NCBI GenBank assembly: GCA_002314915.1
Contig: DCHU01000029.1
Span: 35,452 to 99,451, forward strand
Reading direction: 5' to 3'
Length of the DNA: 64,000 nt
Source of the DNA: Bacillales bacterium UBA1744
Lineage (GTDB): Bacteria > Bacillota_I > Bacilli_A > RFN20 > CAG-826
Shown: piece by piece, positions 11,937-47,576 of the stretch
How the letters are laid out: each line of letters starts with the position of its first letter
How positions within the stretch are numbered: the stretch's first letter is position 1
Program-made: the position numbers and the translations under genes
The notes under the pieces: model-generated
What the model was told of the DNA's origin: nothing
Seen by the model: the letters and a program-made list of their open reading frames with translations, nothing else
Database searches by the model: none

Positions 11937-13520
11937 TTACTTTGCGATTCCAAGCATTTCGGCATAACACTCAAGGGTGTCCATTCCGATTGCATTTGTC
12001 TCCACACCGATGATCACGCCTTCACTGTCAAGGACGACCGTAATAGGGAATCCGTTGGTCGTGAAGTGTGATGCATACGATGCGTTGTAGTCCATACCGA
12101 AGTCCATGTACATCGTTGTCCAGTCAACTTCAGGTCTCTCTTCTGAGATGTAGTCCCTGCACTCCTCTTTGGTATCAATAGAGTCAAGGATGATTAAATC
12201 TAAGTCGCCTTGATACTTGTTGTAGAAATCCTGGAAGTGAGGCATTTCAGTCTTGCAACCAGCACAGTCGACATACCAGAAGTTAAGGATGGTTGGCGTT
12301 CCGTAATGGTCAGAGATTGTCCATGTTCCGTCGCTTCTAACAAGGTCGAATGTTGCATCAGGCGCAATCATACCGACTTGATATCCCTCAGGAACAGTAT
12401 CGAAGAAATTGTAATAGACAAGCGCAGCGCTTAAGACAACAGTCATTGTTACGCCGACGCCAATTGCCCAACCTTTTTTAAGTTTGTTTCTTGGCTTAGG
12501 GTTCTTTGCGATTGCCTCTGGTCTGATTCTCTCCTGCTTAACAGGTTCAACAACCACTGGTGTTTCGTTCTTGTTTGCCATCTCTGCAAGATTGAGTTTT
12601 CTCTCTGGGATTGGAGTCTCGATTGCGTTAGGAGCAAGGAAGATCTTATCGCCCTTCCACTTGATTGCGTTAACAGGGCAAACAGGGATACATTCTCCGC
12701 AAGAGATACATTCGTGGTCACCAACGTGTTTGATGTCCATCTTACATTTATCTAAGCAAAGTCCGCAGTTTGTGCATGTAACAGGGTCATATTCAACGCC
12801 GAACAAGGCGATTTTGTTGAAGAAACCATAGATTGCGCCAAGTGGGCAGAAGAATCTGCAGAAGAATCTATAGATGAACATTGAGGCCACGATGAACACC
12901 ATAAGAAGACTGAACTTCCAGGTGAACAGAGGTCCCATATCACCCATGTTTGCAGGGTCTGACATTAAGAAGAGAGAACCTTCAAAAGTGCCAACTGGGC
13001 AGATGTATTTACAGAAGGCAGGAATCTGCATTCCGATGAATGAATACATGATTGGGATTGTGACAACGAATACGGCAAGGATTACATATTTGAGGTATGA
13101 TGCAATTCTTGACCATTTGGATTTCTTGAGTTTTGGAGTCTTTACCTTGTAAGCGAACTCTTGGAGCATACCAACTGGGCAAAGCCATCCGCAGATGGTT
13201 CTTCCGCAGATGAGTCCGAAGAGCATGATGCATCCAATTACATAGTAAGGCGTTCTTGTATCAGCGGATTCGAGTGAGTTCTGAAGTGCACCTAAAGGAC
13301 ATGTTCCAATAGCACCTGGGCATGAATAGCAGTTGAAACCAGGCAAGCATGCATACTTGGTGTTGCCAGTGTAGATGCTCGCGTTGATGAAGCCTTTGAT
13401 GTTTGCGTTGTAAAGAAGCGCTACATAGAGCTGAACGATTCTACGTCTGGTTGGTGCATGGTCTTTTAACCAACCCCATACGTTTTTGAAGAACTGTTTA
13501 ATCTTATTCATACTATCCAA
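11937..13520 (-). CDS. NapH/NosR-like polytopic 4Fe-4S protein fused to a C-terminal TM + TlpA/ResA-like thioredoxin domain
   Basis: There are four CxxxCP(V/L)G motifs (CYSCPGAIGTCPLG, CGWLCPVG, CKYICPVG, CRFFCPLG). A 2x[4Fe-4S] ferredoxin motif follows (CTNCGLCLDKC...CISCGECIPVCP), then a basic/Pro linker, then the TM GWAIGVGVTMTVVLSAALVYY. The thioredoxin fold is ILNFWYVDCAGCKTEMPHF...GFPITVVLDSEGVI. Confidence 0.8.
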   Translation of the reverse strand: MDSMNKIKQFFKNVWGWLKDHAPTRRRIVQLYVALLYNANIKGFINASIYTGNTKYACLPGFNCYSCPGAIGTCPLGALQNSLESADTRTPYYVIGCIMLFGLICGRTICGWLCPVGMLQEFAYKVKTPKLKKSKWSRIASYLKYVILAVFVVTIPIMYSFIGMQIPAFCKYICPVGTFEGSLFLMSDPANMGDMGPLFTWKFSLLMVFIVASMFIYRFFCRFFCPLGAIYGFFNKIALFGVEYDPVTCTNCGLCLDKCKMDIKHVGDHECISCGECIPVCPVNAIKWKGDKIFLAPNAIETPIPERKLNLAEMANKNETPVVVEPVKQERIRPEAIAKNPKPRNKLKKGWAIGVGVTMTVVLSAALVYYNFFDTVPEGYQVGMIAPDATFDLVRSDGTWTISDHYGTPTILNFWYVDCAGCKTEMPHFQDFYNKYQGDLDLIILDSIDTKEECRDYISEERPEVDWTTMYMDFGMDYNASYASHFTTNGFPITVVLDSEGVIIGVETNAIGMDTLECYAEMLGIAK

Positions 13521-14349
13521 TTCCTATGCACTCTTTGCAGATTGCGACTGCCTTCTTTAGAGCTTCTGCCGCTCCACCATTGAGGATACCTGCAACTATA
13601 AATGTGATGGCCATAACCAAAATTACGCCTCTAATAATCCAAACAGATTTATCGTTAAGTTTTCTTCTTGGGAGTGGTCTTAAATCATTTTGAGAGGATT
13701 TTAGCACTGCTTTTAACGATTCATATTCAAGTTTTGCCCATAGTTCATTGAGGGCAAACACGATTACTGCGGTTGCAAATGAGATAACGACGAATGGAAG
13801 AACATGCTCCATGCACTTAGCCATTTCCTGCATAAGAGGGATAGTCGCGGTCTCAACGAAATTGTTCTTGTTGAGCAAGTATCCATATGAGAGGCCCGCA
13901 CAGGCTGCTGTGATGACTAAGGACACAATGAAACCAATGAGTCTTCTTGTTTTGTATTTCTTAATGAGGGAGTATTCAATTTCCATTCCAACAACCGGTT
14001 CTTTAGGGAGTTTGGCTTCAAGCTCTCTGATGTTGTCAGCTTTGGCGCCTTTGTATCTCCATCTTCTTTCTTCATGAGGGAAGACGTATGAGAGGACACC
14101 TGCCGTGACGAGCAATATACCCCATAGAATGACGATTGCCATGATTGGAGAGAATGCTGCCCATATGGTTTCTGGAGTATATGGATGGTCGTCCATAGTG
14201 CCTCTATATGTGGCAAATAACCACTGGACTCTAACGATGAAAAGAACACCAACAACGATGGTCAAAAGACCTAAGACTGCTTCTATAATGAAGCATGCCT
14301 TTTTGGCTGGTGTTAGCATTTTGAACTTCTCAATGAGGGCTTTCATCAT
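13513..14349 (-). CDS. Multi-pass membrane protein ending in a CD1871A-like CXXC module
   Basis: The C-terminus ...GILNGGAAEALKKAVAICKECIGIG matches my recollection of the short CD1871A-family CXXC proteins (ICxECIGIG). Its stop overlaps the downstream 4Fe-4S gene start by 8 nt. Confidence 0.6.
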   Translation of the reverse strand: MMKALIEKFKMLTPAKKACFIIEAVLGLLTIVVGVLFIVRVQWLFATYRGTMDDHPYTPETIWAAFSPIMAIVILWGILLVTAGVLSYVFPHEERRWRYKGAKADNIRELEAKLPKEPVVGMEIEYSLIKKYKTRRLIGFIVSLVITAACAGLSYGYLLNKNNFVETATIPLMQEMAKCMEHVLPFVVISFATAVIVFALNELWAKLEYESLKAVLKSSQNDLRPLPRRKLNDKSVWIIRGVILVMAITFIVAGILNGGAAEALKKAVAICKECIGIG

Positions 14350-23533: not shown

Positions 23534-23608
23534 TGGTGACCTGTACGGGACTCGAACCCATGAACCCACCGTGAAAGGGTGGTGTCTTAACCGCTTGACG
23601 AACAGGCC
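23534..23608 (-). tRNA. tRNA-Glu (anticodon UUC)
   Basis: The minus strand reads GGCCTGTTCGTCAAGCGGTTAAGACACCACCCTTTCACGGTGGGTTCATGGGTTCGAGTCCCGTACAGGTCACCA. The anticodon loop is CTTTCAC and CCA is encoded. Confidence 0.9.
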
Positions 23609-23611
23609 AGC

Positions 23612-23686
23612 TGGCGCTAACTAGAGGGCTCGAACCTCCAACCGATCGGTTAACAGCCGATTGCTCTGCCATTGAGCTAAGTTAGC
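23612..23686 (-). tRNA. tRNA-Asn (anticodon GUU)
   Basis: The minus strand reads GCTAACTTAGCTCAATGGCAGAGCAATCGGCTGTTAACCGATCGGTTGGAGGTTCGAGCCCTCTAGTTAGCGCCA. The anticodon loop is CTGTTAA. Confidence 0.9.
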
Positions 23687-24128: not shown

Positions 24129-24272
24129 TTATCCTAATGCTGATGAGATTGTGATCTGGCTTGCAACGTCCTGTGCGGACTGCTGGAAAGCCGGGATTAA
24201 AACTGCTGCGATGATGCCGAATACGGCGATGACTAAAACCATCGTGAGCAACGTTCCTTTTAGTTCTGACAT
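24129..24272 (-). CDS. Flp-sized type IV pilin-like protein (47 aa; not in ORF track)
   Basis: My translation is MSELKGTLLTMVLVIAVFGIIAAVLIPAFQQSAQDVASQITISSALG, ending in TAA. A strong RBS AAAGGAGGT lies 5 nt upstream of the ATG at 24272. A short charged leader ends in Gly6 and is followed by a ~22-residue hydrophobic helix. It is the last gene of the Tad-like operon. Track ORF 24097..24294(+) is its antisense shadow. Confidence 0.7.
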   Translation of the reverse strand: MSELKGTLLTMVLVIAVFGIIAAVLIPAFQQSAQDVASQITISSALG

Positions 24273-24285
24273 GGTTACCTCCTTT

Positions 24286-24624
24286 CTAATCTAAATAACC
24301 GATGACCGTCGATCGGGTAACCGACACTGTCATGGCAGATTGCGACATTACAAGAGGGTCGTATTCCCTCGATAAGGTGAATATGAAAACATCACCAGGC
24401 CTTGATGCGGTTGTGGTCTCTATTTTGACGGTGGCTTTGTTCTTCTCTATAAGAGATAGCGTTTCTTTCGATATGGTTCCCTCCAAAGACACCTTCTTTG
24501 CAACCGTCAAAGCGGTAGAGTCTAAGGCGCTGTGGATGGCCTGTATCGAATATAGGTCACCAGAATAGGCGATGACCTCGATTATGAAGAATAAGGTTAG
24601 GATGAATCCGAGTTTAGAGCCCAT
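24286..24624 (-). CDS. TadE-like pseudopilin/minor pilin
   Basis: MGSKLG/FILTLFFIIEVIAYSGDLYSIQAIHSALDSTALTVAKKV has a 6-residue leader ending in Gly. A hydrophobic helix with an embedded Glu and an A-rich amphipathic stretch follow, as in TadE N-terminal domains. Confidence 0.55.
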   Translation of the reverse strand: MGSKLGFILTLFFIIEVIAYSGDLYSIQAIHSALDSTALTVAKKVSLEGTISKETLSLIEKNKATVKIETTTASRPGDVFIFTLSREYDPLVMSQSAMTVSVTRSTVIGYLD

Positions 24625-25255
24625 TGACTATGCCTCCCATGATATTGATTATTCCGACCGTTATCATAATCATCGTCAGAGCGCTTCCGACGAGAGGGAA
24701 GTAAGAGCCTGTGGCTAGTTTCTTATCAAGTCGTTTAACCTCTTGCTTTCTCTCATTTTGCAAAAGGGATGTGAAAAGGAAATTGAACTGATTGATATAG
24801 GAGACATCCCCTCCTTCTATCGACATCCTGTAGATTGAGATGAGGACTTGTTTGCATTCCAATGTGCCGAGTTCCTCACCAAACTCCATAAAAGGCCTGA
24901 CGGTTTTGTCGTTATCAACGCTTTTCAAGAGATTCGTTAGTTTATCCGCCATGGAAGGAGTGGCGAACTGTATTACTTCTTCTATTGCGTTATAAACAGG
25001 AAGCCCGTTTTTGATATAGATTGCAAAATACGAGAAAATCCTGATGAATTCCTGTGATAACGCATCTTTTTCGTCCTGAATCTTTTTCTTTGGACTCGTT
25101 ATGAACAAATAATTCGCAACGGCTAAAATTAGGAATAAAGATATAGGCATAAGCAAAGAGTTCTGCAGCAAGAAACTCAACACAACGAAGGCTATGCCTA
25201 TAACATCCCCTATTATCAATATGATCAGCTGAGTCTTATTTAGTTTTATTCGCAT
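24614..25255 (-). CDS. Single-domain T2SS-F/TadC-like membrane platform protein
   Basis: It has an N-terminal TM pair, a cytoplasmic helical domain (FIRIFSYFAIYIKNGLPVYNAIEEV...) and a C-terminal TM. The size and topology match TadB/TadC. Confidence 0.65.
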   Translation of the reverse strand: MRIKLNKTQLIILIIGDVIGIAFVVLSFLLQNSLLMPISLFLILAVANYLFITSPKKKIQDEKDALSQEFIRIFSYFAIYIKNGLPVYNAIEEVIQFATPSMADKLTNLLKSVDNDKTVRPFMEFGEELGTLECKQVLISIYRMSIEGGDVSYINQFNFLFTSLLQNERKQEVKRLDKKLATGSYFPLVGSALTMIMITVGIINIMGGIVNGL

Positions 25256-25955
25256 TGCGTTTCCTCCATTCGAATTTGAGTTTTTCTCCCGTTATGTTCA
25301 TTGTGAAGAAAAGAGATGAGCCTATCACAAGGACAAAATAGGACACGGTTAAAAGGATGTAGATGATCGAGTTTGATAATTCCTCATAGAACATCGATAA
25401 ACCAAATCTGATGGACAGGAGGATAATCGCGCTTAAGGCCCACAAGGTCAGGAACTGAACCAAGTTATTCATCTTCACTTTGTCCTTCTGATTCTCTACT
25501 TTCTCCACCTCCGCGACCTCGACTAACAAAGGGCCGGCAAGATCTAGGACATCGCCTCCTTGTTCTTCATAGATATGAAATATGGACAAGAACATCTTGT
25601 AGTAATCCTGATGGAAGTAGTTGGCTAGATACTGGATCTTTTCTCTTGCCTGATATTGGTCTATCGAATCCGTTATGTCCTTTTCTTCTCCTGTCACTCC
25701 TTCGATAGCGCTGTAATAAGCGCCATCAACCGAGTTAAGACTGGATAGCGAGACCATGAAAGAGTAGACGAACTGATAACACTCATGCCTCCTTCTCGTT
25801 TTAACTACGTAGTCTCCAACCATAGGCCTAACAAGGAATAGAAGAACCACTTCGAATACCGCAAAAATCAATATCCCGAGAATGATGTTGTTCAACAATA
25901 GGTATCCCATCACCCCATATATCAGGGCGATAACACTGAAAATCGCGTAAATCAT
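25236..25955 (-). CDS. Single-domain T2SS-F/TadB-like membrane platform protein
   Basis: The topology is the same as its neighbour (TMs flanking a helical cytoplasmic domain). It overlaps both neighbours, by 20 nt and 4 nt. Confidence 0.6.
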   Translation of the reverse strand: MIYAIFSVIALIYGVMGYLLLNNIILGILIFAVFEVVLLFLVRPMVGDYVVKTRRRHECYQFVYSFMVSLSSLNSVDGAYYSAIEGVTGEEKDITDSIDQYQAREKIQYLANYFHQDYYKMFLSIFHIYEEQGGDVLDLAGPLLVEVAEVEKVENQKDKVKMNNLVQFLTLWALSAIILLSIRFGLSMFYEELSNSIIYILLTVSYFVLVIGSSLFFTMNITGEKLKFEWRKRNANKTK

Positions 25956-26905
25956 TTATCCCTCCTAAAGAGAACTTCCATGGTTCCGTCGTCATTCAAC
26001 GTACCGATTTCATCTACAAATCGGTGGATGCGGCCGTCTTGGCTCTGTTCTCTTTTTAAAAATATGTAGTTCTTTATGTGCTTAGACACATCGTCTCTAA
26101 GTTCATCCGGCGAGGAACGCTTGTCTCCTTGCATACAAAGTTTGACTATACGGTTTGGCATGGACTCAAGGTTCAAGGCGTGTATGGATGAGATGAGACT
26201 GTGTCCTGATGTCGCGGACACCAAAGCGTCATACATCTCGCCACCTCTGCCCTCCGCGACCACTATGTAGTCAGGATTATTTCTTAAAGCGTTCCTTATG
26301 AGCTTAGGAAATGACGAGGTTTCGTTCTTGTCGTTTGATATCCAAACCGTTAAATCAAGATGAGGTATGGACATTATGTCCAGCTCCTCAATGTTGTCGA
26401 TTACGATGACTCTGGTGTTATCGGGCATCTTGGTTAAAAGCCATTTCTCAAGCTCGGTTTTGCCGGTTGATGTCTCTCCTCCAACGATGATGGAACCTCG
26501 GTTTCTAAGCATTTCTAGGACCAAATCCCTGCTATTTCCTAGGAAAAAGCCTTCATCTTTATCTATTTTCGATTCAAATGACTCTATTCTTAGGTCGAAC
26601 GTGAACACCTTTTCGTTGGAACTCCTTGCGATTGATTTGTAGGTGGCATTTAGCCTATAACGCCCAAAGCTGACATCTAATATCGGAGATGAATACGAGA
26701 ACTGTTTCTCTGATAGGTTGGCAACCTGACGAAGGAAATCACCAACTGTATCACTGCTTATTGCCAAATCTCCTTTGAGCCTTCCCCTCTCGCTTGTCAT
26801 ATAGAAAAGAGCGGTACCGTTATATGAGATGTCGGTTACCTCGGGAATAGAGAGGAATGGTTTTAAGAATGATTCCTCTATGTATTTGGATGTGTCCTTA
26901 TCCAT
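25952..26905 (-). CDS. Secretion ATPase of the VirB11/CpaF(TadA) class (minimal, 317 aa)
   Basis: It has Walker A IIVGGETSTGKTE, an Asp-box/Walker B region RVIVIDNIEE...PDYIVVAEGRGGE, and a His box SGHSLISSIHA. Confidence 0.8.
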   Translation of the reverse strand: MDKDTSKYIEESFLKPFLSIPEVTDISYNGTALFYMTSERGRLKGDLAISSDTVGDFLRQVANLSEKQFSYSSPILDVSFGRYRLNATYKSIARSSNEKVFTFDLRIESFESKIDKDEGFFLGNSRDLVLEMLRNRGSIIVGGETSTGKTELEKWLLTKMPDNTRVIVIDNIEELDIMSIPHLDLTVWISNDKNETSSFPKLIRNALRNNPDYIVVAEGRGGEMYDALVSATSGHSLISSIHALNLESMPNRIVKLCMQGDKRSSPDELRDDVSKHIKNYIFLKREQSQDGRIHRFVDEIGTLNDDGTMEVLFRRDK

Positions 26906-27293
26906 ATATGGCCTCCCCCTCTTTTATGTAAAAGGAAGAAACGCTCTCATAGTGGTATGTGGACAAGAAGTCTCCATAGAACGTGATATCAATCCATGTG
27001 GTTCTCCATACGCCTTCTTCGTAAAACCCATCCAACGGTTCCGTCATGAAGCTATATTTGAGCATTGGCTTGTACATATCTAGATTTGTCTTCAGGTATG
27101 TCTTTACGGTTGATTCCACAACATGTTCGTCAAAGAACGGCTTAGAGGCATCCATAACATTGACCGCCTGGCGGAATACATTCTCATCAAGACCCTGGAA
27201 CGTTCTGTCTAGAGCGCCATAACTCACGGAGAAAGAGAACATCGTGACGCTCAAGATGAAGAGCATCGTCGCTAATAACATATTTGCCATCAT
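26898..27293 (-). CDS. Small N-terminally anchored protein of the Tad-like operon
   Basis: I trimmed the start to ATGATG, which overlaps the upstream TGA (ATGA at 27290-27293), with GGGAGAGA as RBS. The N-terminal TM is MMANMLLATMLFILSVTMFSF. I found no recognisable domain. Confidence 0.55.
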   Translation of the reverse strand: MMANMLLATMLFILSVTMFSFSVSYGALDRTFQGLDENVFRQAVNVMDASKPFFDEHVVESTVKTYLKTNLDMYKPMLKYSFMTEPLDGFYEEGVWRTTWIDITFYGDFLSTYHYESVSSFYIKEGEAIYG

Positions 27294-28360
27294 TCTCTCC
27301 CTACACAATATGTGGACGATATGCAGGATCCGATGAAGTTCTTGGTCTTGGTTACTTCAAACTGATACACCCATTTGTCAAGTTGGTTTGGACCGGTGTC
27401 TATTACTTCTAATATGCACTTGAAAACCTTGGCCTCACCCGCCTCAACCGGAGGGAAGTACAGATCGTTGGTGTACAAATCGGTATCGTTTTTGTCCTCC
27501 ATGCGTTTCATCGTTCTTCCATCCATTGTGACCGCGTATGTGTCCCGGAGTTGGAAGGTGTACATCTCGTTGTCATCGGACTCCACTATCTCAACCGGAA
27601 TCTGTCTCCATGACGTATATCCATCCGTTTCCAAAGGAAAAATATCAAAATCGCTGAGATAATTCGTGATTTTGATATAAGCGTTTCGGTATAACGGCAT
27701 CACAAGTTCTTTCTTATAGTCAAGAACGCCTATCTGAAGTTGATTAAAAGGCAGGCGATTCTTATCAGGATTCTTAAACTCTTTTACAAACCCTTCATGC
27801 TTTATTGTGTACGCGTTCTGATAGACGGTATGATCGCTCACGCTTGCACCCGTGAAGGCGTCTTTATCTCTTTTTAAATCTCCTTCGGTTGTTAAGTCCC
27901 ATGTCCTTGGGCTTTGAACATCGAGTCTGAAATAGGAAACGAATGTAGCGCTCTTTGTGCCATCGGCATTCGTCTCTCTGTTATATAGCCAGAACTTGTT
28001 TCCGGTCGCATTGATCATTTTCCTATCAACCGTAATCGATAGAGTCTTTGTTCCTTTGGCGAATATGGTCACTTTCATCCACATGGTGTCCCTGTAGACA
28101 AAAGAGGTTGGAAACTTGCCGTCGTTGTGGAATTCGGGTGTTGATTCAACGAGGCTGTTATTGAAAACGATGTAGAATTCGTGCGTTCCTTTTCTGACGG
28201 CTTTAAGTTTGATGTCCAGATTAAAATCCTGGTCATTATTTGGAATGCAGCCTATCTCCTGATCGTCTAAGAATGCCGTTTGGGTAACCGTATCTGTCGC
28301 GGTGGTCGCAAAGCATCCGAGGAACATCGAACCAATTAAAGATACCATTGAAAATCTCAT
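27290..28360 (-). CDS. Secreted or lipoprotein-like protein, first gene of the Tad-like operon
   Basis: The signal-like N-terminus MRFSMVSLIGSMFLGC carries a borderline lipobox. RBS AGGGAGA lies upstream. I recognised no family. Confidence 0.55.
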   Translation of the reverse strand: MRFSMVSLIGSMFLGCFATTATDTVTQTAFLDDQEIGCIPNNDQDFNLDIKLKAVRKGTHEFYIVFNNSLVESTPEFHNDGKFPTSFVYRDTMWMKVTIFAKGTKTLSITVDRKMINATGNKFWLYNRETNADGTKSATFVSYFRLDVQSPRTWDLTTEGDLKRDKDAFTGASVSDHTVYQNAYTIKHEGFVKEFKNPDKNRLPFNQLQIGVLDYKKELVMPLYRNAYIKITNYLSDFDIFPLETDGYTSWRQIPVEIVESDDNEMYTFQLRDTYAVTMDGRTMKRMEDKNDTDLYTNDLYFPPVEAGEAKVFKCILEVIDTGPNQLDKWVYQFEVTKTKNFIGSCISSTYCVGRE

Positions 28361-31456: not shown

Positions 31457-33631
31457 TTATTCCTCGTCAGCGTCTTCGTCGTCGCCACCCTGAGGCTTAT
31501 AGTTCTTAAGCTCTTCAGCGTAGTTTGCTTCAACGATGTCACCCTGAACGAGAGGCTCATTGTCTCCCTGCTTAGCGGTGCATGCCATGTCGATGAGCTG
31601 TTTTGCTCTCTTCATCGAGAGTCCGCTCTTGACCTTGAAGCAGCATGGAATGTCTTTGTAGATATTCTTTGCGCTTGCATCGATGACTGGGATTGGTGAA
31701 TCTGCGAAGTCATTTGGGTTGAGAGCTAAGTATAACTTAAGTCCCTTACCTGCGACTGTGACTTTGCAGTATGTTGTGCAGCTTAATCTGAATGTGTCAC
31801 CTGAATTTGAGAGTCTGCTCTTTAATCCATAGGATAAGAGGTATGCCTTGATCTCGTTGTAGTTGTCTAAGAGTGACTGATCGCATTCTGCAAAGCGGTC
31901 TGCGAATGTCTTTCTTTCATAGACGACTGCTGGAGCCGGTTCTTCAACGACAGGCTCTGGCTCTGGTGCTGGCTCTTCAACAACTGGCTCAGGCTCTGGC
32001 TCTGGTGCTGGCTCTGGTGCAGGTGCTGGAGCTGGTGTTAATAAAGCGATTTCCTCACGGATGATTGCGCGGATGTCTTCGCTTGAGAGTGCTGGAGCTG
32101 GCTCTGGTGCTGGCTCTTCTTCAGCAGCTTTCTTTTCGATTTCCTCAGAGACGATGACTCTGATTTCTTCTGCTGTTAAGACTGAATCTGCGATAGCTTT
32201 GATTGCTTCGTTCTGTCTTTCTTCGACTGCCTTCTGAGCTTCTTCCTTTTCAGCATCCTTAGCTGACTGAGCAGCGAATGCGTCATTGATGACTGAACGG
32301 ATGTCATCGAGAGAGATAGCTGGAGCAGGTGCTGGTTCTTCAACGACAGGCTCTGGCTCTGGCTCTGGTGCTGGCTCTGGCTCTGGTGCTGGAGCTGGGA
32401 CTAATGCCTGGATTTCTTCGCGGATGATAGCGCGGAGATCATCGCCTGTTAATGTGTCGTCTTCGACGACTGGTTCTTCTTCAACTGGTTCTTCTTCAAC
32501 AGCTGGAGTTGCTCCTGCATAGTATGCATCGAGTTCCTTGCGGACGAGGTCACGAGCTTCGTCGTCTGTTAATGGACGATCGTTCTCTGGGTGATCATGG
32601 TCATCAAGAGCTTCTGCGATGATTTCGCGGAGTTCTTTTGCTGTTAATGGTCTGTTGTCTTCTTCAACAACAGGCTCTGGTGCTGGAGCAGGTGCTGGAG
32701 CTGGTTCTTCCTTCTTCTCCTCTGGCTGTGGATATGGATAGTATGGAGGGAATGGTGGATATGGGTATGGGTATGGAGCATACTGAACTGGAGCTGGCTG
32801 AGCTGCTGGAGCTGGTCCTGCGCAGTAGAAATTCTGGACGATCTGAGGTCCGTTCTTTCCTGGGACTTCTGCCTGTCCTGCTTTAGCAAGTTCATCATAC
32901 TGAGCTGCCTTGAGAGCTGCTTCGTCTGCTGCCTTGTCTTCTTCTTTTGCTTCTTCTGCAACTGGTTCGTCAGACTTGACTTCGCCAAGCTTAGCGTTCT
33001 TAGCTGCTTTAGCTTCTTTTGCCTTCTTGACTCTCTTCTTGCCGTTTTTAACAGCGTCAGCGAGTGACTGGAATTCATAAACGACTGCGATGATTAAAGC
33101 AACAGCAGCGAGGATGAATGGGAGAGCTGTGTAAAGCATCTGGACAACAACTTTGAGTTTCTCAACGAACGTTCCAGATAATGGGAGAGCACCCTTAATG
33201 ATAGACGAGAGTGTTGCTGATGGAGCGATTGCGCCTGCAGTGATTGCTGACAAAAGGATTGTGTATGCTGCTGCAGATGTAATGAGATAGAGGATTGTGC
33301 AGACTGTGCCTGATCCACGTCTCTTTGCGATGAATCCGATGAACTGGATTAACCAGACGATGACGAGGAAGATTAATCCTCCGAATGCGACCCAAGCACC
33401 GATCTTTCCGAATGTGACTGTGCCTGCGGAACCTGTGAATCCTAAAGCCGCGAATAAGTTCATAAAGGTTGCTGGAACAGCCTTAATGATTGAGAGTAGC
33501 GCTCTAGGTTCTGACTTGATGAGCGAGATGTTCTTTCCTGCAATCTGGAGTGGAGTGAGGAAGAGAACTAATGCTGCTAATCCGACAAGAACTAGTGCTA
33601 CTATGGCATTTACAATAGATTTTTTCTTCAT
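31457..33631 (-). CDS. Membrane protein with long Pro/Glu/Ala-rich repeat region and conserved C-terminal globular domain, unknown function
   Basis: I trimmed the track ORF to the ATG at 33631 (MKKKSIVNAIVALVLVGLAAL; RBS AGAGGT). It has about 5 N-terminal TMs. Six amphipathic modules (for example DDLRAIIREEIQAL and SEDIRAIIREEIALL) are separated by (PA/PE)n linkers. The C-terminal domain is YERKTFADRF...KVKSGLSMKRAKQLIDMA. Confidence 0.7.
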   Translation of the reverse strand: MKKKSIVNAIVALVLVGLAALVLFLTPLQIAGKNISLIKSEPRALLSIIKAVPATFMNLFAALGFTGSAGTVTFGKIGAWVAFGGLIFLVIVWLIQFIGFIAKRRGSGTVCTILYLITSAAAYTILLSAITAGAIAPSATLSSIIKGALPLSGTFVEKLKVVVQMLYTALPFILAAVALIIAVVYEFQSLADAVKNGKKRVKKAKEAKAAKNAKLGEVKSDEPVAEEAKEEDKAADEAALKAAQYDELAKAGQAEVPGKNGPQIVQNFYCAGPAPAAQPAPVQYAPYPYPYPPFPPYYPYPQPEEKKEEPAPAPAPAPEPVVEEDNRPLTAKELREIIAEALDDHDHPENDRPLTDDEARDLVRKELDAYYAGATPAVEEEPVEEEPVVEDDTLTGDDLRAIIREEIQALVPAPAPEPEPAPEPEPEPVVEEPAPAPAISLDDIRSVINDAFAAQSAKDAEKEEAQKAVEERQNEAIKAIADSVLTAEEIRVIVSEEIEKKAAEEEPAPEPAPALSSEDIRAIIREEIALLTPAPAPAPEPAPEPEPEPVVEEPAPEPEPVVEEPAPAVVYERKTFADRFAECDQSLLDNYNEIKAYLLSYGLKSRLSNSGDTFRLSCTTYCKVTVAGKGLKLYLALNPNDFADSPIPVIDASAKNIYKDIPCCFKVKSGLSMKRAKQLIDMACTAKQGDNEPLVQGDIVEANYAEELKNYKPQGGDDEDADEE
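31925..32830 (-). repeat. Intragenic coding repeats (hexamer-periodic GCTCTG/GTGCTG tracts; ~396-bp spaced duplicated block)
   Basis: The exact 29-mer GGTTCTTCAACGACAGGCTCTGGCTCTGG occurs at 31938 and again at 32334. Both copies are followed by (GGCTCT/GGTGCT)n and by a GATTTC..CGGATGAT.GCGCGGA block. Confidence 0.8.
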
Positions 33632-33711
33632 AGTATTACCTCTTTTGCCTTTATATAATACACACGCACACAAAAAAGAAAAGCGCAATTTATCACATTT
33701 TTGCAAAGTTT

Positions 33712-37901: not shown

Positions 37902-38984
37902 TTAGAAATTGATTTCAATGTGTCCGCCGTGATAGGAACGATCGGTGTCACCCTTATCACCTTTTTCGCTTCCGTAGTCGGAATAATGGCTGAAGTCGAG
38001 GCCGCAGTTGATGTACTGGCCAATTTCTTCTTCTGTGAGTTTTGTGACTTTTGTCTTGTTATAGCTGAAGTTCATCTCAACTGAGAAGACAGATTTAGTT
38101 ACTTTGTAATTGAGTAATGATGTCAACTTTGAAAGAACTGAGTCATCAAGCATCTCTGACTTGTTGAATTTGACTGACGTGAACACCTTGTCCACTACGT
38201 TCATGGCAACTGTAGCAACGCCTTCATCTAAAGTGATGTCTGCGGTAACAATGTTTCCTTTTGTGGATGTTACTGCAACCTTTCCTTCGTCAAGCAACTG
38301 GTCGATAACGTCTTTGACGCTGAGTTCTGAATCATGGCGAAGCTTGACGTTTGATGCCATCGATACGAAGTAATCGCTGAATTCTGAATACGCTCTTTCA
38401 AGGTCGATGTTGTATGCGAGGTTTGCCTGAATGCTTCCGAGCCAGTTGTTTGTGGCTGTTTGCTTTGCAAAGAGTGTGCCATCCTGATAATTCAAGCCGA
38501 TGCTTTCAGATCCTGCGTGGAGGAGATTGTCCTGATACTCATGTGAGAGTGATGCGTCGAGGAGGAATCCTGATTCTGTCTTTTCGAAGTCGACTGTGTA
38601 GTTCTGCTTATCGATCTGATGCGTTATTTCTTGATCGTTGAGTGATACGGCGAACTCGAAGTCGAGCTTGTAGTCGGCATGGAAAGAGTTGATCTCCAAT
38701 GTCTCAGCAGGCTCGACTTCTGTGACTGAAGACTCAGGAGTCTCACTGTCCACAGATGGAATGTCAGAATCTTCAAATCTGGCTTTGGCTTTTTGAGTTG
38801 AAGAGGTAGTTGATTCTGCCGCTGCTAGGTTTGCATCTGACTGAGTGTAGATATTTGAGAAGTTTTCTTTGTCCTTTGCGGATGTGATGACTCCCTTGTC
38901 GAATTCTTTTGAGGCTTCTCCGCCTAACGAGCATCCCATTAAGAGGAACGCAGGTAATAATACGAGTAATTTGTTTGCTTTCAT
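37902..38984 (-). CDS. Lipoprotein paralogous to the ectodomain of the adjacent anti-sigma-like protein
   Basis: I trimmed the track ORF (39215) to the ATG at 38984, after AAGGAG. The lipobox is MKANKLLVLLPAFLLMGC. It aligns by eye with 39088..40227 (FHADYKLDF/YHVDYKLHY; YQDGTLFAKQ/YRDGRLYTKQ; C-terminal RSYHGGH in both). Confidence 0.75.
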   Translation of the reverse strand: MKANKLLVLLPAFLLMGCSLGGEASKEFDKGVITSAKDKENFSNIYTQSDANLAAAESTTSSTQKAKARFEDSDIPSVDSETPESSVTEVEPAETLEINSFHADYKLDFEFAVSLNDQEITHQIDKQNYTVDFEKTESGFLLDASLSHEYQDNLLHAGSESIGLNYQDGTLFAKQTATNNWLGSIQANLAYNIDLERAYSEFSDYFVSMASNVKLRHDSELSVKDVIDQLLDEGKVAVTSTKGNIVTADITLDEGVATVAMNVVDKVFTSVKFNKSEMLDDSVLSKLTSLLNYKVTKSVFSVEMNFSYNKTKVTKLTEEEIGQYINCGLDFSHYSDYGSEKGDKGDTDRSYHGGHIEINF

Positions 38985-39003
38985 TTTGTTTCTAAGCTCC
39001 TTA

Positions 39004-39018
39004 CACCAAATGTAACGA
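39004..39018 (-). promoter_or_regulatory. Shared upstream motif (copy 1), candidate ECF-type promoter element
   Basis: The minus strand reads TTCGTTACATTTGGT about 20 nt upstream of the lipoprotein ATG. A near-identical TTCGTTACATTGGT lies upstream of the sigma gene. Confidence 0.4.
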
Positions 39019-39050
39019 AGGAGATATTCGAAATTATTGAGAAAAGTTTT

Positions 39051-39082
39051 GAAAAAATAAAAAACTGCCAAATTTGGCAGTT
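39051..39082 (-). terminator. Terminator after the anti-sigma-like gene
   Basis: The perfect palindrome AACTGCCAAATTTGGCAGTT is followed on the minus strand by TTTTTATTTTTT. Confidence 0.8.
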
Positions 39083-39087
39083 CCTTA

Positions 39088-40227
39088 TTAATAAGAAGTC
39101 TTGTTATGTCCACCGTGGTATGAACGGGATTCACTGTAACCATCATCGGTTTCTTTATCAAATGCGCTGTAATGGAGGAGGTCGGAGAGTCCGATATAAT
39201 CGCTTTCCACGACATCGCTGACTTTCACGTCGTCGTCATACTTGAAGTTTAACTCACATGAGAACTCGTATTTATCTAGTGACACGAGCGGGTTGTCTTC
39301 GATCGTGATCTCTGTTTTGAGTTTGGAGTAATCGAAGCGGATTCCGTTGAATCTTCCGTTATCTGTGTCGATGTTCGTTGTGATAAGGGCCTCATCGGTG
39401 TCGGTTGCCACTTTAATGGAATGAGGTTTAGTCTCAACTACTTCTGCTTCTCCTTTGTTGATGATGGAGTTGATGAGAGCGATGTTTTCGTCATCTGAGA
39501 GATTTGAGAATCTAGCGTTCTCAAGCATTGAGATAAAGTATTCAGGGAACTTATTGAAAATGTCGTTCTTTCCGATGGTGTAGTAATAATTGATGTCAAT
39601 TTTGAAGTTATCAATCAAGGTTGTTGACCAGGAAACGGATTGTTTCGTGTATAGGCGTCCATCTCTATATATCGCATTGATGTTATGGCTTGCGACATAA
39701 TGAGTTAATGGAGTATCCTCGGCAAGCGTAACAGCGCTACTCATCTCGAATCTCGTCCCGTTGGTATCCTGAATGAAGTCGAATGAGTAAGCCTCATCAT
39801 CGCTCTCGGACCAAGTCATTCCGATTGCAGTTGCTTCCATTGCATAATGGAGTTTGTAATCGACGTGATATGAGTATTCTGTTAAGTCATTGGCTCTCTT
39901 GGCTTTTTTGTTTGTGTTGCCGTTCTCAAGGTTTGCAAGAGTTGTGTATGAGTTGGAATAAAGAGCGGATGCCTTTGCTTTCTTTTCTGGATCTGTGATT
40001 TTGCCAGTTGCGAAATCAGGGTTTGTTGAACCCATTGGGATGATGATAGCGGCAACAATTCCAGCGGTTAAACCTAAGGCGAATAAGGATGATAAAGAGG
40101 CAATTAAAGGGGTTTTTGATGATTTTTTCTCGGATTTAAGCTCTAATTTGGCCGCCAATTCCTCGAAATGGTCTTCTGCGACGAATTTGGATTCGACATC
40201 TTTTCTGTACTTGTCTTCCGTTCTCAT
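39088..40227 (-). CDS. Anti-sigma-factor-like single-pass membrane protein
   Basis: Its start overlaps the sigma gene stop by 4 nt. It has a short cytoplasmic N-terminus, one TM (LIASLSSLFALGLTAGIVAAIIIP) and a large ectodomain. No zinc-finger anti-sigma motif is present. Confidence 0.6.
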   Translation of the reverse strand: MRTEDKYRKDVESKFVAEDHFEELAAKLELKSEKKSSKTPLIASLSSLFALGLTAGIVAAIIIPMGSTNPDFATGKITDPEKKAKASALYSNSYTTLANLENGNTNKKAKRANDLTEYSYHVDYKLHYAMEATAIGMTWSESDDEAYSFDFIQDTNGTRFEMSSAVTLAEDTPLTHYVASHNINAIYRDGRLYTKQSVSWSTTLIDNFKIDINYYYTIGKNDIFNKFPEYFISMLENARFSNLSDDENIALINSIINKGEAEVVETKPHSIKVATDTDEALITTNIDTDNGRFNGIRFDYSKLKTEITIEDNPLVSLDKYEFSCELNFKYDDDVKVSDVVESDYIGLSDLLHYSAFDKETDDGYSESRSYHGGHNKTSY

Positions 40228-40739
40228 TTCTCTTTCTCCTTGTAGTAATCTTTAAGCTTCTTTATTGCCTTGTAGTATTTGCCTTGTATCGTTCCAAGCG
40301 TTTCTTTTGTTTCGTCTGCGATTTCTTGGAACGTGTAATCGTAGACGACTTTCAGTGCGACAATGCTCGCTTCATCAACCTCTAATACTTTATTGAGGGT
40401 GATCGTCAGTTCTGCATCATTCAGGTCCTCGGTGGAGATGGAGTCTATCATCTCATCGGTCGCTGACGCTCGTTTCGTCTTCCTTCGGTATAGGTCGATC
40501 GCCTCGTTTTCTGCCATTCTTGACAGGAGTTGTTTGATCGATGAGTCATCATCCACTCCTTCTATGTTCTCCATGAACTTGATGAATGTCTGTTGCGTCA
40601 CATCTTCTGCGTCTTCCTTGTTGTTGAGCACCGAGTAGGCTCGATAGAAGACGAGGTTTTTGTATTGATGGTAGACAATATCAAAAGCTTCGAGCGACTT
40701 CCGTTTTAGGCGTTTAATCAGCTTTGAATCTTTCCCCAT
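40224..40739 (-). CDS. ECF-type sigma-70 family RNA polymerase sigma factor
   Basis: Region 2 is AEDVTQQTFIKF...NEAIDLYRRK and region 4 is YTFQEIADETKETLGTIQGKYYKAIKKLK. It is 171 aa. Confidence 0.8.
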   Translation of the reverse strand: MGKDSKLIKRLKRKSLEAFDIVYHQYKNLVFYRAYSVLNNKEDAEDVTQQTFIKFMENIEGVDDDSSIKQLLSRMAENEAIDLYRRKTKRASATDEMIDSISTEDLNDAELTITLNKVLEVDEASIVALKVVYDYTFQEIADETKETLGTIQGKYYKAIKKLKDYYKEKEK

Positions 40740-40866: not shown

Positions 40867-41715
40867 TTACTGTTGTATCTCAAATGAGTTTTTCTTGTAG
40901 AACACCGGTTCGTAATCATCCCCGGTGAAGGAATCTATTAGGTTAGAGAATTCCTGGGAATCAAGAATCTGTCCATTCATCAAGAAACAGATGAATCCAT
41001 ATCTATCGATAATCGCTGTTGTAGGGAATGATGTGACTCCATATCCGCCTGTCATGTTATCGTAGTCGTATGCGATGTCGAAGTTGAAACCCTTATCCTC
41101 TTTTGCCTGGCACAAGAGTTCATCGGTTCCATCTTTCTTGTCGTAGTAATCTACGCCCAACATATATGCACCGTTGTCCTTGTGTGGAGCATAAGCTTTG
41201 GTTATGCATGGTGCTTCCATATCGCAAGCGGAGCAGTCGATGTACCAGAAGTTGAGAATCAGGCAATCGTTTGTCCTGAGTTTATCTTTGAGAGTTATAA
41301 GCTCTTTCTGAACCTTCCCATCTTCAGTTTTCTCAAGCGTCATAAAGGAATAATCATATGCGATATTGCCAATTCCGATTGTCGTTCCTCTTTCAAGAGG
41401 CTTACTGATGAGTTCTGACTCAAGAACAATCGTGTAGTCCGTCATGCCATCGAGTTTGAACGATTCAATTTTTGAATATCCGTCAGGAAGTGATTTGAAT
41501 TCAACGGTACCAATTGCGGAGGCGTTTTTCAAAACGGCACTGCCTTTGTAGTTGGTGACGTATGACTTTCCGTTTAACGAAAGTTCAACGCCTTCAACTG
41601 GAAGGTTGTGTCTATTGATAATGGTAACAGTGATTGGGACTGATTTTGAGCAGCCGACCAAGGAAGCTAACATCATCGCGATAGGTAATATGGCGATTTT
41701 AGCGTATTTTTTCAT
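40867..41715 (-). CDS. Lipoprotein with C-terminal TlpA/ResA-like thioredoxin domain
   Basis: The lipobox is MKKYAKIAILPIAMMLASLVGC. The redox motif is LILNFWYIDCSACDMEAP, followed by SFPTTAIIDRYGFI. Confidence 0.75.
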   Translation of the reverse strand: MKKYAKIAILPIAMMLASLVGCSKSVPITVTIINRHNLPVEGVELSLNGKSYVTNYKGSAVLKNASAIGTVEFKSLPDGYSKIESFKLDGMTDYTIVLESELISKPLERGTTIGIGNIAYDYSFMTLEKTEDGKVQKELITLKDKLRTNDCLILNFWYIDCSACDMEAPCITKAYAPHKDNGAYMLGVDYYDKKDGTDELLCQAKEDKGFNFDIAYDYDNMTGGYGVTSFPTTAIIDRYGFICFLMNGQILDSQEFSNLIDSFTGDDYEPVFYKKNSFEIQQ

Positions 41716-41720
41716 AGTTT

Positions 41721-43577: not shown

Positions 43578-43722
43578 AGTCGTCTCCTTCGTCACGAGGG
43601 AAACAATAAAGGCAAACGGACTTTAAATCAACCATAAAAGGTTAATTTAGGGGCAAAAAGGTGCTTTTTAGACAGAAAGTAAATAAAAAAGAGAGCCAAT
43701 GGCCCTCTTATTTATCGTTTTC

Positions 43723-44448
43723 TTATTTTGAAGCGTAGTAGTCTCTAGCGACGTCACATGCGACGTTGATCATGTCGACGAGCGATGTCTGTCTCTCTTC
43801 TGAAGTCAAGATTCCAGGAGCGACGAATGAGTCTGAGATTGTGCAAACGGCGAGTGCTTTCTTGCCGAGTCCTGCAGCGATGCAGTAGAGAGCGTATGCT
43901 TCCATTTCAACTGCGATGACTCCCATCTTGGCCCACTTCTTCCAGCCATCTGTATCTGGGTTGTAGAAGCAGTTTGCGGATAAGACGTTTCCGACCTTTG
44001 AAACGATGTTGTTCTTCTTTGCTGAATTTGCAGCGCTAACTAATAAGTCAAAGTCTGCGATTGCTGAATATGAGCAAGTTGGGAATAAGTAATTGGTCAA
44101 TGGGTTGCTGTCGTGGCATGCTGCCTGAGCGATGACGACTGACTTGAGTGGGCACTCTGCGGAATATGATCCTGCTGTGCCAACACGGATGATGACCTCT
44201 ACTCCATACTCAGCGAATAATTCCTGAGCGTAGATGCTGATTGATGGGACTCCCATGCCTGAAGGCATAACTGAGATTGGAGTACCGTCTTCAAGTTCTC
44301 CTGTGTATGCTGTCATTCCTCTGACATCATTTACTTTTTTGGCGTTCTTGAAGAATGTGTTTGCGATCCATTCTGCTCTTCTTGGATCTCCTGGCATTAA
44401 GACGACTTTAGCGAATGAACCCGCTGGTGCACCGATGTGTATGGACAT
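43723..44448 (-). CDS. deoD: Purine nucleoside phosphorylase, DeoD type
   Basis: VVLMPGDPRRAEWIA...NDVRGM...GMGVPSISIYAQEL...IIRVGTAG aligns with E. coli DeoD motifs. Confidence 0.9.
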   Translation of the reverse strand: MSIHIGAPAGSFAKVVLMPGDPRRAEWIANTFFKNAKKVNDVRGMTAYTGELEDGTPISVMPSGMGVPSISIYAQELFAEYGVEVIIRVGTAGSYSAECPLKSVVIAQAACHDSNPLTNYLFPTCSYSAIADFDLLVSAANSAKKNNIVSKVGNVLSANCFYNPDTDGWKKWAKMGVIAVEMEAYALYCIAAGLGKKALAVCTISDSFVAPGILTSEERQTSLVDMINVACDVARDYYASK

Positions 44449-44538
44449 AGTTATTTCCTCTATTTCTGCTACTAGTATAACAAAGTTAGCCCATTACGAT
44501 ATATGAGTTATGAGTAAAAAGAAAGAGGCAAATCGCCT

Positions 44539-45438: not shown

Positions 45439-45444
45439 GCAATC

Positions 45445-45453
45445 ATCATAGCA
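45445..45453 (-). promoter_or_regulatory. Extended -10 box giving a leaderless mRNA
   Basis: The minus strand reads TGcTATGAT, then 6 nt (GATTGC), then the ATG at 45438. No SD is present. Confidence 0.5.
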
Positions 45454-45578
45454 CCCTAGAAATGAAATGGTTCATTAAATGATGTGTTTTTTGTGGATAA
45501 AAAGTATACTTTGTCAATTTAATGCTTTTATGTGGAGGATATTTCTATAAAATATGCTTGTTTTTAGGAGGACCGCCC

Positions 45579-46895: not shown

Positions 46896-46900
46896 AAAAG

Positions 46901-46922
46901 AACCCCGATTGAAGTCGGGGTT
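46901..46922. terminator. Bidirectional terminator between convergent lipoprotein genes
   Basis: AACCCCGATTGAAGTCGGGGTT is flanked by AAAAAAG and TTTC. Confidence 0.8.
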
Positions 46923-46925
46923 TTC

Positions 46926-47558: not shown

Positions 47559-47576
47559 TATACATCCTTCTGCAAA

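Follow-up and report, generated by a model that had tools for sequence, protein, structure and literature searches.

A seven-gene operon of uncultured gut Bacilli as a candidate for a minimal, highly divergent type IV filament machine, with relatives on conjugative plasmids

What kind of machine is encoded by seven tightly packed minus-strand genes in the genome of Bacillales bacterium UBA1744? The genes lie at positions 24129-28360 of a 64-kb stretch of contig DCHU01000029.1 (the window), and an earlier note on this DNA, made from its letters alone, took them for the core of a Tad-type filament machine that had been acquired horizontally and that lacked a prepilin peptidase and the canonical pilin motif. 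We refer to them, in order of transcription, as g1 to g7. Under the generic definition of a type IV filament system (Denise et al. 2019), an ATPase, an inner-membrane platform and a major pilin are required, and the question is how far the products of g1-g7 correspond to these parts. On balance, and with some reservation, we favour a reading in which these genes, inherited vertically in uncultured gut and rumen Bacilli, specify a machine that belongs to the type IV filament superfamily but is minimal and highly divergent. The idea of a pilus-like locus is not itself new, because public sources already label the g3-type ATPase CpaF or TadA, JGI names one g5 homologue TadB, and the 47-amino-acid (aa) representative of the 90%-identity cluster of g7 carries the NCBI name 'GspH family protein'. 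As far as we have checked, the new points are the seven-gene architecture with its fixed site, the structural evidence for the platform and the link to a block of plasmid genes.

ATPase, platform-like proteins and one-helix protein

When all seven proteins were scanned against Pfam and NCBIfam, only the ATPase g3 gave a match above threshold. Its match to Pfam T2SSE (PF00437; E = 4.9e-18, 65.4 bits against a cut-off of 24.9) places it among the ATPases of the superfamily. The protein consists of an N-terminal domain and a catalytic domain only, and in an alignment of 30 members of its family the Walker A (GETSTGKT), Asp box, Walker B (PDYIVVAEGRGGE) and His box (SGHSLISSIHA) motifs are invariant; the ATPase motifs quoted in the earlier note, and the N-terminal strings that it gave for g7 and g6, are all present in the sequence. 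Among the NCBIfam models, g3 scored 95.8 bits for VirB11, 92.3 for the actinobacterial TadA type (TIGR03819, the sole Tad-type model to match), 64.4 for FlaI, 59.6 for TrbB and 48.3 for ComGA, with PilT, GspE and PilB below ComGA. Every one of these scores is far under the curated cut-off, which is 250 bits for VirB11, 373 for TIGR03819 and 300 for ComGA. Compared with the PDB, the profile of the 30 family members found the GspE-like ATPase of A. fulgidus (afGspE; 9.4e-25), HP0525 (1.1e-23), FlaI (3.5e-21) and CpaF (2.9e-20), so that CpaF is not the top match. Because the NCBIfam scores stay below the cut-offs and the PDB matches are nearly equal, g3 is, as judged from its sequence, a member of the VirB11/Tad/archaeal half of the superfamily that lies outside every named family. 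It has more than 1,000 relatives; the best 120 are 47-100% identical to it, are 316-351 aa long and come from metagenome-assembled genomes (MAGs) labelled Bacilli or Erysipelotrichaceae.

The two genes that follow, g4 and g5, encode membrane proteins of the same predicted layout, in which a transmembrane (TM) hairpin at the N-terminus and two TM helices at the C-terminus enclose a helical cytoplasmic domain of about 110 aa. An hhalign comparison of the two (88%, E = 2.9e-6) makes them distant paralogues. Neither has a match in the Pfam and NCBIfam scans, and their profiles found nothing meaningful among PDB sequences. An AlphaFold model of g5, based on 40 homologues, reached a mean confidence (pLDDT) of 84.4, and the top seven Foldseek matches of this model in the PDB were all cytoplasmic domains of OutF/EpsF (GspF), SpoIIIAB or PilC, with probabilities of 0.89-0.99 (0.96 for SpoIIIAB) and TM-scores per target of 0.55-0.65; below these came unrelated helical bundles with probabilities under 0.2. 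The label 'T2SS-F' that had been given to both proteins thus finds a counterpart in the GspF-like predicted fold of g5, but none in Pfam or NCBIfam. Against small profiles of canonical TadB and TadC, built from three annotated Tad loci (TadB against TadC as a control gave 92.7%), the best match of g4 was TadB (33%, E = 4.5e-4) and that of g5 was TadC (46%, E = 2.1e-4), both weak and both in the soluble domain, and the order of these best matches mirrors tadA-tadB-tadC. A word-index homologue search with the g5 profile returned orthologues only, none of them with a Pfam domain, and a HMMER scan of 1.84 billion representatives found, among the matches listed, strong orthologues only; the family comprises about 250-400 clusters at 50% identity from gut and rumen metagenomes. 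Tad and archaeal Epd-like systems are characterised by a platform encoded in two single-domain genes (PMC6668835). From the fold matches of g5, the paralogy of g4 and g5 and the weak matches to TadB and TadC, we read the pair as probable platform proteins, single-domain and very divergent, that follow the order of tadB and tadC.

More than 80 independent loci preserve the seven genes in this order, with ATPases 42-59% identical to that of the window. A 'Bacilli bacterium' MAG from horse faeces, the single match in a species-representative genome collection, contains a locus (L001) with 82% ATPase identity, the same seven genes and the same flanks. Four further relatives at about 50% identity, one of them on a 1.47-Mb contig, agree in order and flanks, and a metagenome scan added 80 loci in which hidden Markov models (HMMs) found the same order and flanks wherever the locus was long enough. 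The shared order is CNNM-CNNM-(short-chain dehydrogenase)-guanylate-kinase-like(-)-[g0]-g1-g2-g3-g4-g5-g6-g7-acyl carrier protein, in which g0 is an additional gene described below. A fixed site between the guanylate-kinase-like and acyl carrier protein (acp) genes in so many diverged loci argues, by sequence and synteny, that the operon is old and vertically inherited at a fixed chromosomal position in an uncultured gut and rumen lineage of Bacilli. The single match in IMG/VR, which was considered as a possible sign of a mobile-element origin, has the same guanylate-kinase-like-to-acp context as the chromosome and was rejected as host DNA.

Horizontal acquisition had been proposed on the grounds of codon usage, and the deviation itself is real. 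ATA makes up 44% of the Ile codons in the locus and 10% in the comparison set, which consists of the 47 other window open reading frames (ORFs) of at least 120 aa; for AGG among Arg codons the shares are 35% and 7%, and by chi-square per codon each gene of the locus is an outlier. GC content and GC at third codon positions (GC3) are ordinary. However, AGG is richer in the operon than in its flanks in 37 of 42 related loci, and this recurrence across lineages suggests weak translational selection, or low expression, of most operon genes rather than recent import. Together with the synteny, it leaves horizontal acquisition unsupported. Within the window, codon usage deviates most (chi-square per codon 1.15) in a gene outside the operon, for a sigma factor of the extracytoplasmic function type at 40224-40739 on the minus strand; the two overlapping Pfam-less genes that follow it (39088-40227 and 37902-39215) are possible genes for an anti-sigma factor and its partner.

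The last gene, g7, is present in every complete related locus and encodes proteins of 47-67 aa among the relatives, so that the small ORF, whose conservation the earlier note had left to be checked, is indeed conserved. Its first nine residues follow the pattern M-S-E-[LIFV]-K-G-[QT]-[LIM]-L, with S, E, K and G invariant; after this short leader (MSExKG) of zero net charge come a hydrophobic helix of about 20 residues and a tail that varies in sequence and length. A leader ending in Gly and the lack of the Flp motif G/xxxxEY and of Glu5 had been remarked on before, and both extend beyond the window: MSExKG is invariant in the relatives, and the Flp motif G/xxxxE[YW] is absent from 46 of 46 distinct g7 orthologues; the g7 of the window has no match to the Pfam model of the Flp pilin (PF04964). 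Between the window and L001, g7 shows 24 synonymous and one non-synonymous codon differences and the acyl carrier gene next door 23 and seven, so g7 is the more constrained. Its Shine-Dalgarno sequence matches the anti-Shine-Dalgarno over 7-8 nt in 44 of the 46 orthologues (mean 7.5; means for g1-g6, 1.7-5.3), and in some chromosomal loci the gene is tandemly duplicated (L053/L055/L056, L072). The 24:1 ratio of codon changes, the invariant MSExKG and the strongest ribosome-binding site of the operon make g7 a genuine gene. The strong Shine-Dalgarno sequence, the constraint, the variable tail and the duplication are, taken together as sequence traits, the marks of an abundant, exposed, polymerising subunit. 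NCBIfam gave g7 weak matches to six type IV pilin or pseudopilin N-termini (E 0.003-0.08), including those of ComGC and ComGE (E 0.009-0.03), and Pfam gave sub-threshold matches to SpoIIIAC/AD (E 0.0066) and DUF6112. We infer that g7 is a filament subunit, the leader of which would be either cut by an unlinked peptidase or kept intact.

Relatives on conjugative plasmids

When 72,556 plasmids were searched with g3 by tblastn, the matches at E <= 1e-12 came mostly from conjugative plasmids of Bacillota, the best with E values of 1e-33 to 1e-35. These plasmid ATPases are 25-31% identical to g3, the best matches reaching 27-31% over 92-96% of the protein; proteobacterial ATPases, from a type IV secretion system (T4SS) in Cupriavidus, a Tad locus in Rhizobium and VirB11 in Campylobacter, matched at 1e-13 to 1e-18. 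On the Bacillota plasmids the ATPase gene is part of a block in which the gene for an N-anchored protein of about 125 aa is followed by the ATPase gene, two genes for membrane proteins of 240-280 aa, one for an N-anchored protein of about 120 aa and one to three for a one-helix protein of 47-50 aa. The full order was seen in pHTbeta of E. faecium, pDSYZ, pXO2, two Listeria plasmids and one B. glycinifermentans plasmid; a pLS20-like B. subtilis plasmid shows the part 3' of the ATPase gene, and pLS20 itself (NC_015148.1) is among the ATPase matches. The plasmid genes in positions equivalent to g2 and g4-g7 are called p2 and p4-p7 here.

Each HMM of the locus finds its positional counterpart on the plasmids, that of g3 scoring 164-173 bits on the plasmid ATPases. 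In hhalign comparisons g4 matched p4 (95.8%, E = 7.5e-9) and g5 matched p5 (93.1%, E = 3.1e-7); the match of g6 to p6 (120 aa) was weak (55.6%, E = 1.2e-4; hmmsearch E = 1.3e-4), that of g2 to p2 was weak by hmmsearch (E = 3.7e-4 and 0.012 among 32 sequences) and not significant by hhalign, and that of g7 to p7 was not significant by hhalign. The ATPase and the two membrane proteins after it therefore have collinear homologues in the plasmid block, and the small proteins on either side agree in size, topology and position. These profile matches and the shared order indicate that the chromosomal operon and the plasmid block have a common ancestry, and the block provides the best plasmid match of g3.

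The two also differ. The plasmid ATPases are longer (365-471 aa) and have an N-terminal extension. The plasmid block sits in a conjugation operon with genes for VirD4, VirB4 and a TrbC/VirB2-like protein, whereas the window locus is chromosomal and vertically inherited and no conjugation genes were found beside it in the scanned window ORFs or in the flanks of its relatives: relaxase, VirD4 and VirB4 are absent from the Pfam-scanned subset of window ORFs and from the vicinity of four annotated relatives, and VirB6 and VirB8 from the window ORFs scanned. Furthermore, the plasmids have no counterpart of g1, of g0 or of the MSExKG protein, and carry a large adhesin gene upstream instead. The earlier note would have given up its idea of an undescribed device if the ATPase and platform proteins clustered in a known, characterised system with the same gene set; the plasmid blocks share much of that set, but they are themselves uncharacterised and have neither g1 nor the MSExKG pilin.

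The gene p5 is carried by 270 plasmids, 223 of them typed as conjugative; Bacillus accounts for 178 of the 270, Listeria for 45 and Enterococcus for 31. Like their chromosomal relatives, the proteins of the block are without Pfam and NCBIfam families. The block follows a large surface adhesin gene, which in pLS20 is the gene for Tie (PMC8557374), and precedes TrbC/VirB2-like and VirD4-like genes. In the literature, genes 36-41 of pLS20 (PMC8557374) and CDS 19-25 of pAW63 (PMC1196294; review PMC9673590) comprise a 'putative VirB11' amid genes listed as 'unknown' or 'conserved hypothetical'; pXO2 and pBT9727 have equivalents of the pAW63 block. A literature search of incomplete coverage found no paper that calls the block pilus-type or Tad-like.

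Some further features of the plasmids may be recorded. The one-helix gene is present in two to three copies in the pDSYZ/pLS20-like and B. glycinifermentans plasmids (L088, L091, L093), and pHTbeta and pXO2 have a second copy of the MLDQNTDR type upstream of the ATPase gene. In pHTbeta (L087, 628-1071) and in Listeria pLmN1546 (L090, 8792-9493), a few kb at most separate the plasmid block from a gene for an intramembrane endopeptidase of the CPBP/CAAX type, and these enzymes could be candidates for the processing of small hydrophobic proteins. Among the window ORFs scanned against Pfam there was no match to the CPBP family.

Accessory proteins, absent partners and neighbouring genes

The seven genes (Table 1) were all found as described before, with successive overlaps of 4, 8, 4, 20 and 11 nt and then a 13-nt gap ahead of g7. 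The remark that g1 and g2 have no recognisable family was confirmed by empty Pfam and NCBIfam scans. The product of g1 is beta-rich, with a highly variable N-terminal half and conserved C-terminal motifs (LYLPP ... N[FY]FG.C.NS.YCV), and a word-index search gave five homologues only. Its AlphaFold model was poor (pLDDT 50), and the Foldseek matches were generic beta-sandwich surface proteins at TM-scores of at most 0.23; on this account no specific fold was assigned. We regard g1 as a candidate adhesin or envelope partner. The g2 protein begins with M-x-N and a hydrophobic helix, followed by a beta-rich outer domain of about 100 aa; its start is probably the second Met, because the relatives begin with M-x-N. 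It is a candidate minor filament subunit, as is g6, in which an N-terminal anchor of the form M-[SGA]-[YS]-K-[LIV]-[GSA]-[FLM]-[ILM]-L-S is combined with a C-terminal domain that is beta-rich and closes with R-[ST]-x-[VI]-x-G-[YF]. The label 'TadE-like', previously attached to g6, has to be dropped: the protein has no match to TadE or any other family in Pfam, no sequence relative in the PDB and no hhalign match to TadE or TadG.

About two-thirds of the related loci have an eighth gene, g0, before g1 (for example L002 6179-6532, L004 6140-6502 and L006 6208-6561). Its product is cytoplasmic, 113-139 aa long and Pfam-less, and contains the motif RGRHY.FWW; the window, L001, L005, L023 and L033 lack the gene.

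Neither a TadZ-like nor a CpaB-like gene was found within the operon or next to it. Two Tad loci of monoderms that served as a comparison (L097, L098) both carry CpaB-like and TadZ-like genes, together with TadE/TadF genes, and in these loci the small pilin gene also comes after tadC. The earlier note had counted five departures from the canonical Tad form. The lack of a peptidase, TadZ and CpaB, the lack of the Flp motif and the terminal position of the pilin gene are all as it said, but two of the five are normal for such systems. Window ORFs of a size and topology suitable for a prepilin peptidase fall, all but one, in other Pfam families. The one not excluded in this way, the sole such small polytopic ORF, is a Pfam-less protein of 278 aa with five predicted TM helices (13513-14349, minus strand), which adjoins the gene for a 4Fe-4S/thioredoxin-fusion membrane protein (11937-13520).

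Several other features of the window were noted. A Pfam-less protein of 749 aa (31457-33706, minus strand) has five N-terminal TM helices, acidic EPAPEPEP repeats and a C-terminal globular part, and the relatives have a Pfam-less gene for 570-764 aa at the same spot, upstream of the two CNNM genes; the repeats account for the bin at 32-33 kb with a GC content of 0.509 and an AT-skew of -0.35. Two adjacent tRNA genes (23537-23686, minus strand) lie between acp and a GNAT/methylguanine-methyltransferase fusion gene, and a T-box leader (53050-53288, plus strand) precedes the arginine biosynthesis operon from argG onward. Predicted lipoproteins, most of them Pfam-less, are encoded in a run at 40867-48161 (40867-41715, 41721-43595, 45522-46895 with Big_2, 46926-47558 and 47577-48161), in agreement with the earlier remark on a lipoprotein-rich lineage.

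Table 1. Genes of the operon and the ribosome-binding site of its last gene (positions in the window)
Feature	Positions	Strand	Description
g1	27290-28360	-	356 aa; secreted, probably a lipoprotein; lipobox FLGC; first in operon
g2	26898-27293	-	131 aa from ATG; bitopic, N-terminal anchor; conserved position in 83 loci
g3	25952-26905	-	317 aa; secretion ATPase; Pfam T2SSE match
g4	25236-25955	-	239 aa; membrane protein; first platform-like protein, TadB position
g5	24614-25255	-	213 aa; membrane protein; second platform-like protein, TadC position
g6	24286-24624	-	112 aa; N-terminal anchor; candidate minor subunit
g7	24129-24272	-	47 aa; one-helix protein; candidate major filament subunit (pilin-like)
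g7 Shine-Dalgarno	24277-24284	-	perfect AAGGAGGT; 4 nt before the ATG of g7; strongest ribosome-binding site of the operon

A proposed filament and its alternatives

If the operon encodes a filament machine, a hexamer of g3 would sit on the cytoplasmic GspF-fold domains of a platform made of g4 and g5, in a manner resembling Tad and archaeal Epd pili. Movements of the platform driven by ATP would lift g7 out of the membrane and stack it into a thin fibre or a short pseudopilus; g6 and g2 might prime or cap this fibre, and g1, as a secreted beta-rich protein or lipoprotein, might be an adhesin or envelope partner presented by it. The most likely role would be contact with surfaces or other cells; the homologous plasmid block lies directly behind a surface adhesin gene and beside genes for DNA transfer. 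The formation of a fibre, the parts given here to g1, g2 and g6, and the biological function are what we infer.

A number of observations weigh against this reading. The Pfam platform model T2SSF (PF00482) matches neither g4 nor g5 nor any homologue on record, the E values of the top seven Foldseek matches of g5 are weak (0.18-0.68), and the link of g4 to the GspF fold runs only through its paralogy to g5, the protein whose structure was modelled. On the side of the filament, g7 has no Flp_Fap or N_methyl match in Pfam and no pilin match in the PDB, and its position +5 is taken by Met, Ile or Leu and in no case by Glu; Glu5 is usually regarded as important for the assembly of pilins. The plasmid protein p7 consists of MLDQNTDR and a TM helix, with no Gly at the boundary and no detectable likeness to g7, and g2 and g6 show no likeness to TadE, TadF or other minor pilins. 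The rare codons suggest low expression of most of the genes. SpoIIIAA and SpoIIIAB, an ATPase with a GspF-like partner, work without a pilus. Finally, the signature GxGDxK of A24 peptidases is absent from all frames of the 64 kb, and no prepilin peptidase was found within 8 kb of four annotated relatives; motif and Pfam scans thus agree with the earlier statement that the 64 kb hold no peptidase, TadZ or other accessory gene. However, members of the type IV filament superfamily often rely on a peptidase that is unlinked or shared, and tadV can sit apart from its locus (PMC6668835), so the absence from 64 kb does not show that the genome is without one.

The main rival is a translocation engine without a filament, in which the ATPase and the GspF-like pair power a channel or an assembly process, like SpoIIIAA/AB in the feeding tube of sporulation or the gating by VirB11, with g2, g6 and g7 as fixed membrane subunits and g1 as exported or assembled cargo. 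We judge it unlikely, though it deserves serious attention, as it accounts for the missing peptidase and for the fact that no pilin family matches g2, g6 or g7, and would agree with the plasmid proteins of 47-50 aa that have no Gly cleavage site. The likeness to SpoIIIA comprises an ATPase about 300 aa long, a small single-domain partner with a predicted GspF-like fold (SpoIIIAB being among the top structural matches of g5) and small hydrophobic proteins in the operon, including g7 with its weak match to SpoIIIAC/AD. On the other hand, the NCBIfam matches of g3 include no SpoIIIAA model, the locus has no equivalents of SpoIIIAE-AH and has two platform-like paralogues instead of one, and in the Pfam and NCBIfam scans neither a ring-forming partner (AG/AH, YscJ-like) nor a polytopic AE-like one turned up in the operon; the links being limited to the fold of g5 and the sub-threshold match of g7, the locus was not assigned to SpoIIIA. 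VirB11 of VirB/D4 systems resembles g3 in its two domains and length of about 320 aa, provides its top NCBIfam model, and HP0525 is close in the PDB comparison. VirB11 is not known to be paired with GspF-fold platform proteins in a VirB/D4 T4SS, and with a score far below the VirB11 cut-off and no partner genes in the window ORFs scanned, membership of such a system was rejected. The engine explains the properties of g7 less well, since its strong Shine-Dalgarno sequence, constraint, variable tail and duplication fit an abundant exposed subunit better. The closest relatives of g3, g4 and g5 are inside conjugation operons (pLS20, pAW63/pXO2, pHTbeta and Listeria plasmids), beside VirD4-like and TrbC/VirB2-like genes, and most of the plasmids that bear p5 are typed as conjugative; the operon might thus be the domesticated remnant of a conjugative element, still serving DNA exchange through mating-pair contact or a DNA-uptake pseudopilus rather than adhesion to a host. 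This seems improbable to us: relaxase, VirD4 and VirB4 are missing from the ORFs and relatives named above, the site is fixed between housekeeping genes while the ATPases have diverged to 42-59% identity, identity to the plasmid ATPases is lower still at 25-31%, and g1, g0 and the MSExKG protein have no plasmid counterpart.

With Tad/Flp loci, here those of Thermoanaerobacterium (pTHETHE01), Kineococcus (pKRAD01) and Bulleidia, the operon shares an ATPase without a long N1 domain, two single-domain platform-like genes straight after it, a gene for a tiny one-helix subunit downstream, and the weak profile similarity of g4 to TadB and of g5 to TadC. The 'Tad-type core' of the earlier note stands as far as the ATPase, the two single-domain platform-like proteins and the small N-anchored proteins are concerned, but the locus is not a canonical Tad locus. 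No Tad-specific NCBIfam or Pfam model passes its cut-off for any of its proteins, it lacks the Flp motif (...ERG/ALTLLEW in the Flp of Thermoanaerobacterium), g1-g7 and g0 gave no match to TadZ (ParA/MinD-like), CpaB/RcpC (SAF) or TadE/TadF (PF07811), and neither TadG nor TadV was found; membership was rejected on the ATPase score, the missing motif and the absence of TadZ, CpaB, TadE and TadF. A canonical Tad/Flp operon of recent horizontal acquisition, with its peptidase and accessory genes elsewhere in the genome, would suit the public names CpaF/TadA and TadB, the codon usage that differs from that of the neighbouring genes and the ability of tadV to lie apart (PMC6668835). We consider it very unlikely, because synteny across more than 80 diverged loci contradicts recent acquisition, GC and GC3 are normal and the rare-codon enrichment recurs in relatives, monoderm Tad loci carry the CpaB- and TadZ-like genes that are missing here, and the canonical tad locus of Erysipelotrichales, that of Bulleidia, has 13 genes with tadV first and is organised differently (PMC12786226). 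The chance that the operon is of the ComG type, for a competence pseudopilus, appears slighter yet. A host among the Bacilli, an ATPase of about the size of ComGA and the weak matches of g7 to the N-termini of ComGC and ComGE speak for it; however, the ComGA score of g3 is far under the cut-off and ranks below VirB11, TadA and FlaI, and the motif KGFTLxE and a ComGD-GG set are absent. ComGB is one two-domain platform protein, and the locus has two single-domain proteins; ComG membership was rejected accordingly. As for archaeal type IV pili and the archaellum, the A. fulgidus ATPase is the best solved-structure match of g3, with FlaI close, and Epd-like pili also have two single-domain platform genes. 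The host is bacterial, however, the locus lacks a two-domain platform of the FlaJ type as well as FlaH and the other archaeal accessory genes, and g3 scores no better for archaeal ATPases than for VirB11 or CpaF.

Returning to the filament reading, we tentatively put forward, as a possibility that is rather doubtful at present, that the operon and the plasmid blocks together form an unclassified branch of type IV filaments in monoderm Bacillota, which would polymerise a Glu5-less subunit of 47-67 aa, possibly without a peptidase. The plasmid version might then be the missing contact filament of conjugation, and the chromosomal version might serve adhesion or cell-cell contact in gut Bacilli with reduced genomes. 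Plasmids of the pLS20 and pMG1 types, pHTbeta being pMG1-like, mate efficiently in liquid. The step of mating-pair formation in Gram-positive plasmids is still called elusive (PMC11730352), and if the plasmid block is a filament motor, it would offer a testable answer to how some of these plasmids form mating pairs without a known pilus. The block has gone unexplained since at least 2005 in well-studied plasmids, among them the anthrax plasmid pXO2 and the vancomycin-resistance plasmid pHTbeta. Pfam and NCBIfam models match the ATPase but none of the other six proteins, so that a survey of type IV filaments by profiles would register a lone ATPase and overlook the system. If g7 is a pilin, it would put to the test how general the rules on Glu5 and on the peptidase are. 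The uncultured host lineage has in this operon a strong candidate colonisation factor.

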